This document shows, one piece after another, positions 1 to 7,076 of a DNA stretch of 64,000 bases. The position numbers and the translations under genes were made by a program. Position 1 is the stretch's first letter, and each line of letters begins with the position of its first letter. The stretch is from NCBI GenBank assembly GCA_964621445.1, contig CAZUNO010000004.1:109413-173412 (forward strand). Reading direction: 5' to 3'. The notes below the pieces were generated by a model, which worked only from the letters and a program-made list of their open reading frames with translations, searched no databases and was not told the DNA's origin. This DNA is from Candidatus Hadarchaeota archaeon. Its GTDB lineage: Archaea; CAYQAE01; CAYVLA01.

Positions 1-967
1 CTTTCTTCCTTCCAGTTACGGTGGTGGTGAAGCCCTTTGTCTTGCTTAGGTAGTGCTCCACTCCGGTGACCTGTATCTCTCCATTTAGTGACGAATTTGG
101 CGTGCCATTGACATCAACCACGTCTCCGAGTTTGATCTCCGCGCGTCCCACCAGGTCCAGGGTAACCTTCATTTTGTATTTCATTTTCTCCGCTCTCGCC
201 TTAGCGACGCTTTGGGCGGTTTTAGTATCCTTTATGGTGGGGTCATTTATGATGAGGGGATTTCCGCCGCCGCCTCCGGATATCTTTGCTAAAACGTTCT
301 GTTTCGTCAACCAGGTTATGGTGTGCGAACCCTTAGAGCTTGAAGGGCTTTCCCCCCGAATCTCGGTGGACCCATACCTTGGGGATGTATCGAGACAAGA
401 GGCGCTCATGATATCCTTTCCGTATTCCACCGTATGTCGATCCTCGGTAACCCAGGATCGAAATATTAGCTGGCCCTGCTCGTTTGAATAGATATCGAAA
501 TTACATTTCTTGGCCAGCTTCAGGATGTGCTTAAAGGCATTTATCTTATCATCGAGGGAATATATCGGTAGATTAATTCCATCGGAGGCCTCCTTGACCT
601 CTATCTCGGCCTCCTTGGCCAGATCCTTCACTATCTTACCCGCAGTTTGATTCGAGTATACCTTCTTGGTCTTGAGTTTCAGAAGTGCCGAGAAGGGACC
701 CAGTCCGGTCAGGGTTAGGTTTCTGATATCGTACTCGACCTTGTCCAACGCACCGGCAAACACCTTCTCCAGTTTATCCTCATAACCAAGGCTGGCCTCC
801 ACCATCTCCTTTCCCTCGACCTCTAGGGCATCTGGAGATGACATCTTTATCTCGCAGCTATCAATGGGCAATCCCATGCTTCTCTTAACCCGAAGGCTCA
901 CCAGCTTCCTTTCCTTGGCCGAAATCGAGTCCGATCCTACGGTGATGGAGAAAGCCGGTTTCATCAT
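1..967 (-). CDS. Baseplate hub protein (phage late control D / gp27 / VgrG N-terminal-like), running off the window's left end
   Basis: Not in the ORF track because it has no stop in the window. Manual translation from ATG 967: MMKPAFSITVGSDSISAKERKLVSLRVKRSMGLPIDSCEI...SLGYEDKLEKVFAGALDKVE...YSNQTAGKIVKDLAKEA...GRAEIKLGDVVDV...LNGEIQVTGVEHYLSKTKGFTT. These are gpD-family hallmarks, and the gene directly follows the tube initiator. Confidence 0.8.
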   Translation of the reverse strand, partial: MMKPAFSITVGSDSISAKERKLVSLRVKRSMGLPIDSCEIKMSSPDALEVEGKEMVEASLGYEDKLEKVFAGALDKVEYDIRNLTLTGLGPFSALLKLKTKKVYSNQTAGKIVKDLAKEAEIEVKEASDGINLPIYSLDDKINAFKHILKLAKKCNFDIYSNEQGQLIFRSWVTEDRHTVEYGKDIMSASCLDTSPRYGSTEIRGESPSSSKGSHTITWLTKQNVLAKISGGGGGNPLIINDPTIKDTKTAQSVAKARAEKMKYKMKVTLDLVGRAEIKLGDVVDVNGTPNSSLNGEIQVTGVEHYLSKTKGFTTTVTGRKK

Positions 968-1468
968 CTACACCATCGACCCCCTAGATGAATTGATCTC
1001 CTTTACCTTACTCCTTACCTCCTCCTTCGCCGATTGCTTCTGTTCCGGGGGCGGCGTTTCACCTGGGCCCTTCTCAGGTTCATGCTCCCTCAGTACCATG
1101 GAGTATTCGCTGCCCGAGGGTTCGGTGTTTTTTAGGGTAGCCGAGAATTTTTCCATAACTACCTCAGTTACCTCCGTCAGAGGGCTTATATCGCAGGAAA
1201 ATGATAACACCTTGCCCTTGGAGAAAAGATCCCTGAGCTGATCAAGGGTCTCGGGAGTGTCCGGGCCAACCAACCGACCGTCGAAGGAGATCTTTACCGG
1301 GTCCCGCCCCAGGTCCTGAAATACATTTGAATCGGAACCCGGGATCTTGAGCTCAACCACCGATCGCTCTCCGCTTATTGATAGATTAGCTATATTTCTA
1401 AGCTCCCGGATCACCCCATCCTCATCATTTCGCATAATGAGATCTATGTCCTCTACCCTCATCTGCAT
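968..1468 (-). CDS. Tail tube initiator / baseplate protein (Mu gpN DNA_circ_N-like)
   Basis: Motif VVELKIPGSDSNVFQDLGRDPVKISFDGRLVG resembles the DNA_circ_N/tube-initiator family. It lies between the tape measure-like gene and the hub gene. Confidence 0.65.
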   Translation of the reverse strand: MQMRVEDIDLIMRNDEDGVIRELRNIANLSISGERSVVELKIPGSDSNVFQDLGRDPVKISFDGRLVGPDTPETLDQLRDLFSKGKVLSFSCDISPLTEVTEVVMEKFSATLKNTEPSGSEYSMVLREHEPEKGPGETPPPEQKQSAKEEVRSKVKEINSSRGSMV

Positions 1469-1470
1469 AG

Positions 1471-3027
1471 CTATATCTCCTCAAAGCTGATGTGACCGTA
1501 GTGACGGCGCACCTGTTCGGTCATTATCCTGGATATCTTTCTCTCCAGGTCCCTCAGATCCTCTTCCTGAACTTCGCCTGAAACGACCAGGTTCACATCC
1601 CTCTCACGGGTCGGTCTGACCGGTCGCAATACGGGACGAGAAGGTTGTTCTTCCTCTCTCTGAACGGTGGCCTGAGCGGCCGTTGATGGAGAGGTGGAGA
1701 CCGGGGGCATTGTGGCCGTCACCGGGGGCCCGGAAACTGCAATATTTGCTAGGGGCCTAAGGTATTCCCTCTGGGTGACCTCGATGTTCTGGGCCATTTT
1801 GGTAAAATGATGTTCTATCTCACTGGCCAGGGCCGTTTCCAGGGAGAGTAATCCAGGTCCTGCCTCCCGCGGCCGAGATACGGGTGAGGGCCGGGTTTCG
1901 GCAGGGGCCCGGAAATCCACGGGAATAACTGGCAGTTGTGTTTCTTGCCCCTCCGATCCAATCTCCTTCAGACTGGATAATTCTCGGCCTATTTGCCCTT
2001 GAAGTCTGGCCATGGCCATGCTTGGCGCCAAAATCTCGGGAACAATGGCCCTGGTTTTATCCTCCTCAGTCTCAGTTCCGGATATATACCTTCTTTCTTC
2101 CGAGGATGGTTGCTTTGCCGATACATTTCTAGTATCCTCAGGGGGGATTTCGCCCCCCGTTATGCTTATGGGCGAGCCCAGGTCTCCCTGTAGGCCTGAA
2201 CCCAGCCTGGTCAGGGGCATCACAAGTTGAGAGGCGGCCACGGTCAGTGGTGAAACCGGGGTCTTCTCGGTGCCTAGCTGTGGCTTTTTCATTTCTACTT
2301 CTTTACCATCGGATTGTTTCCTTTCCGCGGTTTCCCCGTCTGACGCAGGTGTGCCAGGAAAGGCCGGGATTCCGGCCATAACTGTGCTTGAAATTGCGCC
2401 TGCAAGAAGAGCGGCATTGCCTATCTGACGGCCCGCTCGCTCTGCAACGGACAGGGGCTCATTTATGCCCTCCTCCAATTCCATTATGCTGGATGATACC
2501 CGTCTTGTGGCCTGGGATGGTCGTGACTGAGAAACTAGACCTGCCAGTCCCTGCGATCCGGTGATATCTCCGACCTGGAAATCTTTGGAAGGGGTCTCCT
2601 GGACAGCCCCTGGAACGAGGTGTACCATTTGCTGGGCCATGGCTGAGGCTATCTTTCTGGCTACCGAGACCCGGAATAGTAGGGAAACGTTTACCCCTCC
2701 CATCCTTCCCGTTTGGGTCTTGACATCTTGCTCCATTTGGTCCTGTCGAGACCAGATATCAAGGGGTGGAAGAGGTGCGAAACCAGTCATAGACAGCTCC
2801 GTCATCCTGTTACCTACGGTTGCCAGACGGGTTATGGCGCCAGTCAAGGTCCTGAAAACCGATGTCAGAAGTCTTTCCATGGATGCCGCGTACCTGGATG
2901 TATCAACACCCATCTCCCATAACCGGTTAACGTAGCGCTGGGTATAGGCAGCTATTCTAATGGGTTTAGAGATGGCTCGATAGGTTTTTCGTTCATCCAA
3001 GGTTTTCCTCCACCTCTTCCTCTTCAT
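1471..3027 (-). CDS. Tape-measure-like protein (518 aa, largely low complexity)
   Basis: Syntenic position after the chaperone pair. Helical N-terminus, long P/S/T/E-rich region, and C-terminal DVNLVVSGEVQEEDLRDLERKISRIMTEQVRR as seen at tape-measure C-termini. Confidence 0.55.
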   Translation of the reverse strand: MKRKRWRKTLDERKTYRAISKPIRIAAYTQRYVNRLWEMGVDTSRYAASMERLLTSVFRTLTGAITRLATVGNRMTELSMTGFAPLPPLDIWSRQDQMEQDVKTQTGRMGGVNVSLLFRVSVARKIASAMAQQMVHLVPGAVQETPSKDFQVGDITGSQGLAGLVSQSRPSQATRRVSSSIMELEEGINEPLSVAERAGRQIGNAALLAGAISSTVMAGIPAFPGTPASDGETAERKQSDGKEVEMKKPQLGTEKTPVSPLTVAASQLVMPLTRLGSGLQGDLGSPISITGGEIPPEDTRNVSAKQPSSEERRYISGTETEEDKTRAIVPEILAPSMAMARLQGQIGRELSSLKEIGSEGQETQLPVIPVDFRAPAETRPSPVSRPREAGPGLLSLETALASEIEHHFTKMAQNIEVTQREYLRPLANIAVSGPPVTATMPPVSTSPSTAAQATVQREEEQPSRPVLRPVRPTRERDVNLVVSGEVQEEDLRDLERKISRIMTEQVRRHYGHISFEEI

Positions 3028-3229
3028 CCTCGGAAACCACTATTCTGGTCACTCCTTCAGCCGCCTTTTGGGCCGTTCTCTTCATCTCATTTCTGTATGA
3101 CATAGCGCCGGTGAGGAAGAGAACCTGGTCTCTGGTAAGGTTGGCGGGATTATCGGCCAGTTTGTATCCGCAGTCCAGACATAGGGCTGCAAGCTCTACG
3201 CCCTCGGGACTTTTAACGAACCGTTTCAT
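2993..3229 (-). CDS. Tail assembly chaperone C-terminal ORF (gpT-like), in the -1 frame of the upstream gene
   Basis: 78-aa ORF overlapping the upstream stop (ATGA). Reachable by a -1 slip on A9. NPANLTRDQVLFL resembles gpT/gpE' 'P.E...LT..Q' motifs. Confidence 0.6.
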   Translation of the reverse strand: MKRFVKSPEGVELAALCLDCGYKLADNPANLTRDQVLFLTGAMSYRNEMKRTAQKAAEGVTRIVVSEDEEEEVEENLG

Positions 3230-3591
3230 TCGGATTTTTTTTTACGAGCTGCCGATTCGGTCACGCCGCTTAGTTCAAGGACCTTCATTCCAATAAACTC
3301 CGGTACCCCGAATTTCATTGCGGCAACCTCTCCCTCAGAGAGCTCCGGGTCAACCAGGCCCTTTGAAGCCGCCATTCTGAGTGCTTCAAGGTTTTTGTGG
3401 ACGTCAACATTGCCTAAATCCGGGGTTCCATCGTCCTTCAATGGAACGTTTCCAATCAAACCAAATATCTCAGAAAGCTCTCCATCGGTTAATGGACGTA
3501 TAGAGACCTCTGCGTTATCGTACTCCTTGATGGTGAGAGTTTTCTTCATTTTTGCGCCCTGTAGAATGGCCTGCTTCGTGAGCCTTGTCAC
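3226..3591 (-). CDS. Tail assembly chaperone (gpG-like)
   Basis: GTG 3591 preceded by GAGGAG. 121 aa with EVSIRPLTDGEL, typical of tail chaperones. Lies directly after the tube gene and ends RKKKSE across the A9 run. Confidence 0.65.
   Translation of the reverse strand: MTRLTKQAILQGAKMKKTLTIKEYDNAEVSIRPLTDGELSEIFGLIGNVPLKDDGTPDLGNVDVHKNLEALRMAASKGLVDPELSEGEVAAMKFGVPEFIGMKVLELSGVTESAARKKKSE
3235..3243 (-). other. Putative programmed -1 frameshift site (A AAA AAA within A9)
   Basis: Minus strand reads CGT AAA AAA AAA TCC GAA TGA. The -1 frame AAA AAA ATC CGA ATG AAA CGG is open into ORF 2993-3229. Confidence 0.65.
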
Positions 3592-3596
3592 TTCTA

Positions 3597-3998
3597 CTAC
3601 TCCTCCCTCATCCTGGTGGCGGTGAATGTGTAGTCGGTGGTGCCCACGCCGTTGGCATCCATTGAGAACACCTTTCCCTCCAGATAGCACCTATCGAAGG
3701 CCAAGGTCCTCACGGATTGACCTCCCTTCTTGAGTTCTATTACCAGCTGGAATGGCTGGATGTCAGCCACGCCGGTAACCATCATGCTATCAAACTTTGG
3801 AAAGCTGGAACGCACCTTAAGCGTGCCCTCCACGTACATGGGTCCGTAGTCTATTCCCACCCTTTCGTCAAGGCCTATGTTGTGGACATTCTGGCGGTTT
3901 CGGACCACCTTGTACTCTATTGCCTGAAGCCCTGGTATGACCTCGCCGTCGACCTTTATGTTACTAACATTTGCGGAAACAACAACTGGTTCTGGCAT
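3597..3998 (-). CDS. Contractile tail tube protein
   Basis: 133-aa beta-rich protein immediately after the sheath, with a very strong SD (GGAGGAGGTGA). C-terminal TTDYTFTATRMREE is typical of tube proteins. Confidence 0.75.
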   Translation of the reverse strand: MPEPVVVSANVSNIKVDGEVIPGLQAIEYKVVRNRQNVHNIGLDERVGIDYGPMYVEGTLKVRSSFPKFDSMMVTGVADIQPFQLVIELKKGGQSVRTLAFDRCYLEGKVFSMDANGVGTTDYTFTATRMREE

Positions 3999-4014
3999 CT
4001 ATAATCACCTCCTC

Positions 4015-5370
4015 CTAGGCTTGAACGGTTATGGTGGCGTAGATATAATCTATGGCCCTAACCGGCCTTACCGCGATGTCCGCCCTAACTATGCCCTGGG
4101 CGAAATCCTGTTCTGAACAGTACACGTCGACCAGGAAAGGTGGCTCCTCCCCGTCCACGCTGGGCACGATGGCGTCCTCACGTTCCATGGTCATGAAGAA
4201 CTCGGTTAGCTTCTCCCTTAGAGCAGTGCGACCGCCGGGGGTGTTAAGAGTACCGATGAAGTTCTCAGCCACATTCCGGGCTCCCCTAACCGCGTGGTCA
4301 GCAACTCTGGTGACGCTGATCTGTTCCTTGTCGGTTGAAATGCCCTTCTCCACGATAATTCCTCTTCCCTTTCGGGCCTCCAGGGCCAGAATACCGGCCT
4401 TGAGAAGCTCCTTTAGCTGTGCAGGTGTGTACCTGGTTTCAAGCTCGGATACCCCGGTAATGGACTTGAAGGTCGGGGATTCGTAGTAGTTCAGCTTGCT
4501 TATCAAACCGCCAACGGCACCAGAAACTCCGTAGGGCGCTACAAGAACGAATCGATCGCTGGCCAGGGTCTCGGTTCTCTTTGCGATGTCCTCCACATCT
4601 TCCCCGGGTGCCACGGTCCCAATTCCGATCCTGTTCTTTGCCTCCTGGGCCATGTTCTTGCAGTGGGCATCGATCAGAGCATGTACCTTGGGGTCCCATG
4701 TGTCACAGACGGAAACCATGTCCACATCCTCTTCCATCTCCAACATCTCGAGGGCTGACTCGATATCCTCCATCTTTGGTTGAGCTGTCTCGCCGCCGGA
4801 AAGCTCGTACTCGCCTGGTGCAGGGATTGGACTCTTGGTCTCCTTTCCCTTGCTAAGGTCCTCCGCCGACACCAGTTCGGAGTTTTGGTTGAGCATTGTG
4901 ACGATGTAGTTGTCACTGTCCGGATCCATGACCAGATCGTCCCATACCTCGAAGGTAACGCCATTGGTGATCTGTAGCATCACGCTGTCTTCCGAATTCC
5001 CTTCCGATACTCCCACCTTTATGGAGTTACCGGCCTCGCCCGGAACCTTTGATTCAAGGTCCACGAGCTTTGCGTTGTTCTCGTTGGTGAGGGTCGCTTT
5101 CGCGGATTTTGACCCTCCCGCCTCAACTCGCACCGCATATACCTGCGATACACCATTTAGAAAACAGGTGCGAGCATCCTTGGTTAGGGAATAGGCGGTA
5201 TCCGCTCCGAACTTACCAGTCAGTTCCCGGTACCCAGTGACTGGTATCGGTTTGAGAAGGGGGCCCTTCTCAGCCGTGCCCACAAGCCCAACCACCCCGG
5301 CTGGATGAAGCTGTTGAGGCACGATCTCCTTTATTACCTGGATTTCAACTCCGGGTAGGATTCTTGCCAA
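4015..5370 (-). CDS. Contractile tail sheath protein
   Basis: N-terminal ILPGVEIQV and GLVGTAEKGP; C-terminal NFIGTLNT, GIVRADIAVRPVRAIDYIYATI. These are Phage_sheath_1/1C hallmarks. TTG start with GAGGA SD. Confidence 0.92.
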   Translation of the reverse strand: MARILPGVEIQVIKEIVPQQLHPAGVVGLVGTAEKGPLLKPIPVTGYRELTGKFGADTAYSLTKDARTCFLNGVSQVYAVRVEAGGSKSAKATLTNENNAKLVDLESKVPGEAGNSIKVGVSEGNSEDSVMLQITNGVTFEVWDDLVMDPDSDNYIVTMLNQNSELVSAEDLSKGKETKSPIPAPGEYELSGGETAQPKMEDIESALEMLEMEEDVDMVSVCDTWDPKVHALIDAHCKNMAQEAKNRIGIGTVAPGEDVEDIAKRTETLASDRFVLVAPYGVSGAVGGLISKLNYYESPTFKSITGVSELETRYTPAQLKELLKAGILALEARKGRGIIVEKGISTDKEQISVTRVADHAVRGARNVAENFIGTLNTPGGRTALREKLTEFFMTMEREDAIVPSVDGEEPPFLVDVYCSEQDFAQGIVRADIAVRPVRAIDYIYATITVQA

Positions 5371-5402
5371 TCTAAGTCCTCATTGGCGATGTTGTTCGAT
5401 AT

Positions 5403-5420
5403 TATTTAAAGATTGTCTTC
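5403..5420 (-). promoter_or_regulatory. Archaeal TATA box (TTTAAATA, 5410-5403) with purine-rich BRE-like upstream sequence, driving the tail operon
   Basis: Minus strand reads GAAGACAATC-TTTAAATA, 32 bp upstream of the sheath TTG. Confidence 0.6.
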
Positions 5421-5555: not shown

Positions 5556-7076
5556 TTGAAAACCCCTTTTCACGGCATATGCCCGCCATTAGAACTTCGC
5601 TCAAATATCATGTTTTTCCACGATTGGAGATACGTCCACCATGGATCGACCGTCTGGTTGAGTGAATCGGGGGAGAATCCCGGTTTATGGGTACCGGCAA
5701 AAACGGAGGACTATCATTGGGCAGGAACCAATATCCCGAGGGGAATAGAGTTGAAGGTGAAGAAAGCCGTCAAATCGGGTCCCATTATCGAGCCCGACAA
5801 GCCCTGGGAGGGGATGTTACATGCCCCCAGTCTAATTTTTGACCAGGGAAAATATAGACTCTGGTACGAGTCGGTTCCACCGGTCGATATGGAGGCCTTT
5901 GATGCCGGAATGACAAACCTGCTGTGCTACGCGGAGTCCGCGGATGCAGAGGAATGGGTCAAGCCAAATCTGGGGGCTATGGGCTACCAGGGGGCCGAGA
6001 ATACAAACATAGTCTATGGGGGAGAATTAACCTCCAAGACGGGCTACCACGGGGGAAGCGTGTTCCTGGACCCAGGGTGCGATATAAGCGAGAGGTTCAA
6101 GTTGATACACCTGGGATATCTTTCAAGAGACGACTACGAGTCCTACATGCAAAAAGAGGGGATGGAATCAGACCCCCATAACGAGAAAAGAGACGAACCT
6201 CGGGCCGTTTTTGGCGGCGTTTCCCCTGATGGCATAAACTGGACGCCTCTAGATGAGCCACTAGTTTTACAGATGAGCGACACCCAGAATGTAGCCTACT
6301 ATGATACCCATCTGAGGAGATATGTGGCCTATCTAAGAACCTGGGTGATGGGAAAGCGGTCGATAGGTAGAACCGAGTCCAGGAAGTTCGGGCGCTTTCC
6401 ACTTCCCGAAACCTTTCTCTGGCCGGATTTATCGGTAGGTCCCTCCGATCTGTGGTACGCAAATGGAAAAACAACCTATCCTGACGCGGATGACTACCAT
6501 CTACTCTTCCCCAAGAAATGGAGGCTGTCCGAGGACCGTTTCTACGTCTACATGTCAACCAGCCCCGATGGAATCATGTGGGGTCCACCTAGACCTGTTT
6601 TGGAACCGGGTGAGGAGTGGGATTACGGCGGGGTCGATGTAGGCCCAGGAATGGTTAATCTGCCAGGTGAAAGGCTAGGGGTACCATTCGTGGGATACGA
6701 GGTCCCCCACAAGTATCCAAGAAGTGCTCCCCTGGGAAAGATAGCATTAGCCCACTGGGAACGTGGGAGGTTGGTCGGCCTGGAGGCAAAGGAGAGAGGG
6801 AGCTTCAGCACGGTATTGTTGAGATTAAAGGGGCAGGAGGTTCACGTAAATCTAAAAACCAGCAAAACCGGTGAATTCAGGATAGGGATCTCGGATAAAA
6901 ACGGAATCGGAATAGCAGGTAGGACAATAGCAGATTGTGATCCCATTACCGGGAATCATCTCGACAAATTGGTTACATGGCACGGTAGCTCAAATATCGA
7001 GGAGGGGGATGAACACCTTTTGCGCTTCCGGGTAGTTATGGACCAGGCCGAACTTTTTGCCCTACGGTTCATCTAG
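5556..7076 (+). CDS. Five-bladed beta-propeller glycosidase-like protein (GH43/GH32/GH130 clan-like)
   Basis: Repeated S.DG..W propeller motifs (YAESADAEEW, SPDGINW, SPDGIMW), DTQNVAYYD, and a C-terminal beta-sandwich (DCDPITGNHLD). Confidence 0.65.
   Translation: MKTPFHGICPPLELRSNIMFFHDWRYVHHGSTVWLSESGENPGLWVPAKTEDYHWAGTNIPRGIELKVKKAVKSGPIIEPDKPWEGMLHAPSLIFDQGKYRLWYESVPPVDMEAFDAGMTNLLCYAESADAEEWVKPNLGAMGYQGAENTNIVYGGELTSKTGYHGGSVFLDPGCDISERFKLIHLGYLSRDDYESYMQKEGMESDPHNEKRDEPRAVFGGVSPDGINWTPLDEPLVLQMSDTQNVAYYDTHLRRYVAYLRTWVMGKRSIGRTESRKFGRFPLPETFLWPDLSVGPSDLWYANGKTTYPDADDYHLLFPKKWRLSEDRFYVYMSTSPDGIMWGPPRPVLEPGEEWDYGGVDVGPGMVNLPGERLGVPFVGYEVPHKYPRSAPLGKIALAHWERGRLVGLEAKERGSFSTVLLRLKGQEVHVNLKTSKTGEFRIGISDKNGIGIAGRTIADCDPITGNHLDKLVTWHGSSNIEEGDEHLLRFRVVMDQAELFALRFI

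Follow-up and report, generated by a model that had tools for sequence, protein, structure and literature searches.

A contractile tail operon at the window edge

The stretch of DNA analyzed here (the window) comprises 64,000 nucleotides, positions 109413 to 173412 of contig C4, from an archaeal genome (G000; 3.2 Mb, 96% complete) belonging to a GTDB phylum of 5 species genomes of 2–4 Mb each. At its left end, within positions 1–5410, we identified 7 closely packed genes, all on the minus strand, which continue past the window edge into an operon of 13 genes and 10.5 kb. The operon encodes a complete contractile tail that includes a cap but lacks a neck, and 3 plus-strand genes, including those for a PAAR protein and a membrane protein with a double zinc ribbon, are convergent with its end (Table 1). 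The cluster is very probably a functional head-less injection machine. We give about an even chance to the fuller reading that it is a domesticated contractile injection system (CIS) of Mu/P2-like phage-tail ancestry, fixed in the chromosome and acting in association with the cell rather than after free release.

Table 1. Promoter, operon genes and convergent genes of the tail cluster. Positions are those of the window unless given for contig C4.
Feature	Position	Strand	Basis
Archaeal TATA box TTTAAATA	5403..5410	-	Read directly; 32 nt to the sheath TTG start at 5370
Tail sheath, 451 aa, TTG start	4015..5370	-	PF04984 E 2.9e-17; phrog_279 "tail sheath" E 7e-53
Tail tube, 133 aa	3597..3998	-	Position and size
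Tail assembly chaperone-like protein, 121 aa, GTG start	3226..3591	-	phrog_344 "tail assembly chaperone" E 4e-5
Putative second small chaperone-like protein, 78 aa	2993..3229	-	No family match; ATG overlaps the preceding chaperone stop
Tape-measure-like protein, 518 aa	1471..3027	-	No family match; position, size, conserved C-terminus
Tube-initiator / Mu gpN-like hub protein, 166 aa	968..1468	-	DUF6046 29.2 bits (cut-off 27.4); DNA_circ_N 25.3 bits (cut-off 21); Dit_like weak
gpD/gp27-type baseplate hub, 327 aa	1..967, ending 17 nt left of the window	-	phrog_52 E 1e-13; weak Phage_GPD/YQBQ and VgrG_rel
gpV-type spike, 270 aa	C4 108587-109399	-	PF04717 29.4 bits; VgrG-related C-terminus
gp25, 136 aa	C4 108166-108576	-	PF10934/PF04965
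gpJ, 522 aa	C4 106601-108169	-	PF04865 E 8e-28
gpI, 305 aa	C4 105679-106596	-	PF09684
p228, short fibre-like protein, 228 aa	C4 105015-105701	-	No sequence family; AlphaFold model
p231, tail terminator, 231 aa	C4 104313-105008	-	No sequence family; AlphaFold model
2H phosphoesterase	C4 103770-104312 (L002:14271-14813)	+	PF13563 E 1.6e-34 ("2'-5' RNA ligase" family)
PAAR protein	C4 103328-103723	+	PF05488 E 2.5e-12, 47.3 bits (cut-off 27) for frame L002:13754-14224
Membrane double-zinc-ribbon protein, 543 aa	C4 101691-103322	+	Domains and topology read from sequence

A pattern scan of GTDB species genomes yielded 26 loci with the sheath, and the tube is conserved in all 26 loci that reach its position. 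The tube had no Pfam match, with none to PF06841 (gp19) at E<0.1, and its profile gave a weak, nonsignificant match to Hcp in the PDB (E 0.68); the nearest ESM-Atlas clusters, DUF2001 (share 11%) and Phi812_tail_tube (share 18%), are a lead only. The GTG start of the chaperone-like gene at 3591, placed through 25 aligned homologues, lies 5 nt past the tube stop and is preceded by GGAGGA. The 78-aa gene that follows shows 44–74% identity in 15 loci, and its location between the chaperone and the tape measure suggests that it is chaperone-like as well. Position likewise points to the 518-aa gene as the tape measure; its product ranges from 252 to 745 aa across loci and is well conserved only in the last ~55 residues. 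The gpD-type hub and the gpV-type spike together are a split VgrG. In Methanocella and Methanoperedenaceae (L025, L027, L028, L030) the hub is 691–872 aa long, compared with ~330 aa elsewhere, and the modules are several kb longer, indicating that extra domains or genes have been inserted there. NCBIfam names none of the tube, chaperones, tape measure, gpN-like protein, p228, and p231.

For the last 2 operon genes, profile searches against PDB sequences gave nothing significant, and p231 had no Pfam match at E<0.05. Their structures were therefore read from AlphaFold models built on homologue alignments. The p231 model (pLDDT 80) matches neck and tail-terminator folds, best that of phage 812 (8qkh_G, E 4e-8), and also those of E217 (8fvh_M), Pa193, lambda gpU (3fz2), the pyocin R2 collar (6u5f_A), and the monocin cap (9j1j), together with a weak match to the AlgoCIS entry 7adz (E 0.014). 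The p228 model (pLDDT 83) consists of a 30-residue helix followed by a beta-sandwich resembling a carbohydrate-binding module, a shape that suggests a short fibre or receptor-binding protein. This protein is unusually conserved across phyla, with a mean column identity of 67%; it is the only fibre-like gene of the operon, and no fibre chaperone was found.

A TATA-like box at -40 to -42 from the start was identified in 9 of the 26 upstream regions compared (G000, L010, L011, and L017–L022). The sheath begins with TTG in 11 of the 26 rows compared (window 5368–5370; L010–L014 and L018–L022), all of them in the clade of Thermoproteota and the window's own phylum, with ATG in the methanogen clade.

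An earlier note on this stretch had described tail genes packed on one strand with the sheath first, 32 nt behind a promoter box, and both the sequence and the family matches confirm that description. It had called the promoter host-type; the archaeal TATA box is present, but a canonical box cannot tell a host promoter from a virus promoter. The divergent glycosidase that it placed upstream of the sheath corresponds to a divergent 506-aa gene (5556–7076) heading an ABC-transporter operon, but its identity as a glycosidase, while plausible, is not established by the searches: neither Pfam nor PDB sequence searches gave a match, and BNR/sialidase-like clusters with an Atlas score of 0.93 are the sole lead. 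The statement that no head, portal, or terminase gene lies upstream agrees with the right flank, in which the open reading frames (ORFs) scanned to 21 kb encode transporters and metabolic proteins. Its preference for a Mu/P2-like over an Afp/PVC-like system is backed by the DNA_circ_N and tail assembly chaperone matches and by the presence of 1 sheath and 1 tube, with no ATPase, Pvc16_N, or gp19. Of the genes that it expected to the left, we found the spike, gp25, gpJ, gpI, a short fibre-like protein, and PAAR, along with the terminator, but no ATPase, long fibre, or recognizable toxin in this genome.

Conservation, distribution, and selection

We compared the cluster with 2 related genomes of a sister genus, G001 and G003. 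Both carry the full set of 13 genes, collinear with those of G000 and flanked by the same host genes, at 31–78% identity (sheath, 78%). The flanking host genes of G000 are 49–76% identical to theirs, and the cluster proteins diverge about as fast as these flanking genes. The sheath gene and the 506-aa gene are adjacent in both G000 and G003; in G001, an insert of ~7 kb with a periplasmic binding protein and ABC-type genes separates the sheath from the homologue of the 506-aa gene (L007:11243-18437, ~11.3–18.4 kb upstream of the sheath in L010). The sheath and gpJ were absent from the fourth member of the family and from the only other member of the class. Sheath carriers make up 3 of the 5 genomes in the phylum and 2 of 17 in one Bathyarchaeia-labelled class (that of G041). 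The labels of 2 relatives in the phylum are inconsistent, reading "uncultured Thermococci archaeon" and "Candidatus Hadarchaeota archaeon." The stretch itself was contained in 7 DNA sequencing runs from 2 studies, of microbial-mat and hypersaline-lake metagenomes, and in no RNA run among the runs listed.

Beyond the phylum, the sheath family comprises 1187 proteins at E <= 1e-10 among 8000 candidates, with 64–100% identity among the 120 matches listed. Across the 26 GTDB loci, labelled as Bathyarchaeia, Methanomethylicia, "Nitrososphaeria," Geoarchaeota, Methanoperedens, Methanocella, Methanoregulaceae, Methanomicrobiaceae, and Methanothrix, the sheath is 53–78% identical. The order from sheath to terminator is the same in 12 of the 26 loci, the others being longer or stopping at the end of the contig or flank, and the downstream parts of the remaining loci were found once more flanking sequence was included. 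The 13 genes stand in the same order in Bathyarchaeia, Methanomethylicia, Methanocella, and Methanoperedens, with sheath identities of 53–84%, and wherever a locus is long enough, none of the 13 reading frames is broken. Each of the 12 genomes checked has 1 sheath copy. The 10 kb upstream of the sheath hold metabolic genes that are unrelated between lineages.

The ratio of nonsynonymous to synonymous substitution rates (dN/dS) was 0.00–0.20 in 32 gene comparisons between close species pairs; for G001 versus G003, the values are near saturation (dS 1.0–2.2), and 3 of the 13 genes were not computable. A sheath tree of 26 rows, with L034 and L015 left out as partial, separates a methanogen clade from a Thermoproteota clade and places the window's family inside Bathyarchaeia (support 99/96). 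This nesting suggests that the cluster was acquired laterally long ago and has descended vertically since.

Against 50,697 phage records, the best match of the sheath was 29% identity over 42% of the query. In IMG/VR, a single sheath protein as query found nothing, and an alignment query found 1 locus, on a contig of 12.3 kb (L036). The module there is rearranged, with hub, spike, gp25, gpJ, gpI, fibre, and terminator first, and the other strand carrying a 200-aa soluble double-zinc-ribbon protein and a gpN-like gene, then sheath, tube, and chaperone. L036 is a tail-only contig with no head genes, and its label as viral is therefore doubtful.

Partner genes, mode of action, and alternatives

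The membrane protein of the convergent unit starts with a signal or anchor segment and ectodomains of the Ig/fn3/OmpL47 type, followed by a single transmembrane helix, K/R-rich residues, an Invasin_D3/Big_1 (Ig-like) domain, and a double zinc ribbon at the C-terminus. On this topology, the C-terminal tail with the Ig-like domain and the double zinc ribbon is predicted to be cytoplasmic. The PAAR gene, for which 10 homologues are 58–67% identical, starts 5 nt after the membrane-protein stop. Homologues of the membrane protein adjoin the cluster in 17 of the 28 genomes or contigs examined; in the Thermoproteota loci, they are co-oriented with PAAR, and in 1 Bathyarchaeon, where the main operon is without a spike, the homologue stands beside a gpV spike and a DUF4280 PAAR-like gene. 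Between phyla, the alignment is confined to the cytoplasmic tail, in which a pattern of 4 CxxC motifs is invariant. Strong orthologues within the 5-genome phylum were found only in the 3 sheath carriers. Complex predictions of PAAR with the cytoplasmic tail, made with alignments and run without controls, scored 0.02 and 0.00, which counts neither for nor against contact between the two.

The 2H phosphoesterase gene lies 46 nt past PAAR. Both of its HxT/S motifs are intact, it is the only copy in the genome, and it adjoins the cluster only in the window's phylum; it may be a cargo or effector, or simply a housekeeping gene. A block of 4 genes (L002:6320-12022; C4 95822-101521) separates the partner unit from the nearest host genes that are syntenic beyond it and encodes proteins of 601 aa and 91 aa, a 606-aa protein with a metallo-beta-lactamase fold, and a 584-aa coiled-coil protein. 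This block is without counterpart in the syntenic region of G003, and the genome encodes at least 12 further members of the family of the 601-aa protein, which has no Pfam match.

Other loci carry further genes. In the Thermoproteota versions, 3 extra same-strand genes of ~165, 713, and 492 aa, with no Pfam family, follow the terminator (L039:78-4193, L040:5862-9946, L042:62-4218, and L046:1-3409); they are absent from the window's genome, and the ~165-aa domain is also fused to PAAR in L041 and L047. The G001 locus (L051, contig C10, 1715-5002) has 3 convergent genes beside the membrane zinc-ribbon protein, encoding a DcrB/DUF1795-like protein (157 aa), a calcineurin-like metallophosphatase (601 aa), and a 343-aa protein with a C-terminus resembling the "x165" domain. 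The DcrB/DUF1795 family includes effector chaperones of type VI secretion systems (T6SS). Extended PAAR proteins were identified in a Bathyarchaeia locus (L047:11502-13373; 623 aa, with OmpA-family and PG_binding_1 domains) and at L041:7468-8445 (325 aa), the latter neighboring a 1119-aa S8 peptidase with PG_binding_1 (L041:3679-7038). That archaeal loci carry such domains directed at peptidoglycan suggests that the targets may be bacteria.

Under the reading of a cell-associated device, 1 archaeal promoter would drive the 13 genes to give a complete tail, and the convergent unit would add the PAAR tip and the single-pass membrane protein. The tail would assemble in the cytoplasm on its baseplate, and contraction of the sheath would push the PAAR-tipped tube through a membrane, with the membrane protein perhaps serving as its dock or trigger on the membrane of the producer. 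On this view, the device would work from within the cell, pointing outward as a T6SS does or operating in the manner of CISSc/CisA, and would not be freely released.

That the tail serves a virus, live or helper-dependent, with head and packaging genes encoded at another place or diverged beyond recognition, would fit the Mu/P2 order of the tail genes, the frequent failure of Pfam models to pick up head proteins of archaeal viruses, and the filing of 1 related contig as viral in IMG/VR, but we consider it very unlikely. In G000, the surroundings of the cluster hold no head, portal, terminase, or integrase gene, and searches of the whole genome with PF05065, PF03237, PF04860, and PF03354 gave 0 matches with controls that worked; a search with PF06074 also gave 0 matches, but its control was equally silent. 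G003 and the complete Methanocella genome G054 likewise gave no match to head families, and in the 5 other carriers searched, the matches (in G045, G042, and G044) were only unlinked ones, on other contigs or 290–760 kb away. No head genes lie within 10 kb upstream of the sheath in the 24 loci with upstream sequence, no neck or head-tail joining genes were found, and the terminator closes the operon. Both flanks consist of ordinary cellular genes that differ between lineages, the locus is syntenic across 2 genera, the IMG/VR contig is tail-only, and the phage records hold no close sheath. A decaying prophage remnant without present function would explain the missing head and integrase and the patchy distribution in phylum and class, and is the least probable of the readings: the 13 frames are intact wherever the locus is long enough, the promoter box is conserved, and both the low dN/dS and a divergence rate close to that of the flanking host genes speak against decay. 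Completeness, the lack of head genes, synteny, and purifying selection thus in effect rule out a decaying prophage and make a virus tail unlikely. The domesticated contractile machine proposed in the earlier note, which had named contiguous head or integrase genes and a decayed, unconserved module as its possible refutations, is supported by the tail genes to the left, the lack of head families, conservation, and purifying selection; no such contiguous genes were found, and the module is conserved and syntenic.

A released particle of the R-type tailocin or extracellular CIS (eCIS) kind is a serious contender, although we hold it to be somewhat less probable than an even chance. Such a particle would be freed by lysis or another exit, bind its target through p228, and puncture it, with the membrane protein serving immunity, release, or regulation. 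The pyocin-like content (1 sheath, 1 tube, chaperones, a tape measure, and no AAA+ ATPase), the terminator fold shared with the pyocin R2 collar and the monocin cap, and the carbohydrate-binding-like head of p228 on its helical stalk all fit this picture, and PAAR fused to OmpA and peptidoglycan-binding domains in some relatives suggests targets outside the cell. On the other side, Pfam recognized no holin, lysin, or other lysis family among the ORFs ~20 kb to each side, conservation across phyla is comparatively high for the putative fibre, and it is not obvious what a conserved, PAAR-linked membrane protein would do in a free particle. Sequence, for its part, is a poor guide to holins and to archaeal lysis proteins. 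The membrane protein encoded with the spike tip, the conserved "fibre," and the lack of recognized lysis genes together tilt us toward a cell-associated device, and we judge attachment to the cell through the membrane protein to be about evenly poised.

Several points weigh against this reading. The membrane protein is tied to the tail by genetic linkage and topology only; many archaeal membrane proteins carry double zinc ribbons, and weak matches to the domain also occur in the 2 genomes of the phylum without the cluster. Of the 11 genomes or contigs in which the membrane protein was not seen beside the cluster, 10 end before its usual position, and L027, a whole contig whose module diverges after the hub, gave no detectable homologue. 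PAAR was not found in G001, no effector or toxin was recognizable in G000, and there is no recycling ATPase, unlike in T6SS. A lectin-like fibre and a terminator cap are needed by a released particle too, and capsid and terminase proteins of archaeal viruses can escape Pfam models.

More speculatively, and with less confidence than we attach to the readings of a cell-associated or a released device, the cluster might represent an independent, hitherto uncatalogued, pan-archaeal CIS class, derived from the tail of a Mu/P2-type myovirus rather than from the Afp/PVC lineage, without an ATPase, and docked at or triggered from the membrane by a bitopic protein whose variable ectodomain would sense the outside while its zinc-ribbon tail engages PAAR, spike, or baseplate. 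If true, archaea, including methanogens, methanotrophs, and Bathyarchaeia, would have arrived at a T6SS-like weapon a second time, by convergence. The family is intact and under selection in at least 3 differently labelled archaeal phyla; its carriers include the globally important uncultured Bathyarchaeia and Methanoperedens, as well as the culturable Methanocella sp. MCL-LM, the genome of which is complete (locus L028/L045). How archaea, with an S-layer and a single membrane, put a phage tail to use as a cellular device could be tested in this family, which also raises the possibility of antagonism between archaea and bacteria in sediments, mats, and methane-cycling consortia.

Comparison with known contractile systems

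The cluster most resembles the tails of Mu and P2 and the R-type tailocins such as the P2-like pyocin R2. Its genes follow the Mu tail and baseplate order of sheath, tube, chaperone, tape measure, gpN (DNA_circ_N), gpP (gpD-like), spike, gp25, gpJ, and gpI. Shared with these systems are the single sheath and tube, chaperones, and tape measure, a baseplate of gpD hub, gpV spike, gp25/gpW, gpJ, and gpI, the Mu gpN-type DNA_circ_N protein, the lack of an AAA+ ATPase, and a terminator fold that matches the pyocin R2 collar; with tailocins, it also shares the head-less state, as its 13 tail genes stand between host flanks in a genome with 0 matches to PF05065, PF03237, PF04860, and PF03354. In contrast to these systems, the archaeal cluster has no recognized lysis cassette, and no SOS-type regulator was recognized at it. 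It encodes a short, conserved lectin-like protein instead of a long gpH-type fibre with its chaperone, its terminator stands at the end of the operon, and PAAR and the conserved membrane protein are convergent with it. The fibres are usually the most variable part of tailocins, which are themselves strain-variable, whereas p228 is highly conserved and the archaeal cluster as a whole is conserved across phyla. The likeness to defective prophage tails of the PBSX type (XkdK/XkdM) consists of the DUF2001 and Phi812_tail_tube Atlas clusters of the tube, a lead only, with sequence similarity below what Pfam scores; PBSX keeps its heads and lysis system.

To our knowledge, the archaeal CIS characterized experimentally so far are of the Afp/PVC type, namely the haloarchaeal T6SS-like CIS and the phage-like protein-translocation structures (PLTS) of anaerobic methanotrophic archaea (ANME) and of methanogens such as Methanomethylovorans. 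Like the cluster described here, these eCIS-type systems are head-less, reside in cellular genomes, have a PAAR-tipped spike and a cap gene at the operon end, and show no recognized lysis genes. They differ in that the archaeal cluster has no AAA+ ATPase, no match to the DUF4255/Pvc16_N cap, and 1 tube rather than paired gp19 tubes, and that it carries phage-type chaperones. For the cap family, a genome search with PF14065 gave 0 matches, its control being silent as well. Among the ORFs ~20 kb to each side in G000, no AAA+ ATPase (Afp15/Cis15) was found, only ABC-transporter and P-type ATPases. In the available part of the source, the AAA+ ATPase is described as "always" carried by PLTS, with the DUF4255/Pvc16_N cap and paired gp19 tubes as defining features (PMC4122934).

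Large surveys, in their available parts, report CIS in 1 archaeal phylum and set aside ATPase-less clusters as "phage or R-type bacteriocin" (PMC8213781, PMC12210884). Since inclusion or exclusion there turns on Cis15/Cis6 (PMC12210884), the archaeal ATPase-less family would have been filtered out by the procedure as given in that part. We found no account in the literature of this ATPase-less archaeal family or of its zinc-ribbon partner; Makarova et al. 2019 may touch on related clusters, and one of the 2 ANME "PLTS versions" in Chadwick et al. 2022 might be this family.

Membrane partners are known or proposed for other CIS. In Streptomyces, the available part of the source describes a cytoplasmic contractile system that needs the membrane protein CisA for function and firing (PMC12237407); the concept is shared, but that system is of a different, eCIS-type lineage, and a role in cell death is not indicated for the archaeal cluster. 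In haloarchaea, a conserved membrane protein adjoining the CIS cluster has been proposed as an anchor, again according to the accessible part of the report (bioRxiv 10.1101/2024.04.11.588991). That candidate has 6 helices as described there, whereas the protein encoded beside the present cluster is bitopic with a zinc-ribbon tail. Archaeal CIS as such are already known, and this cluster offers a new candidate anchor or trigger protein.

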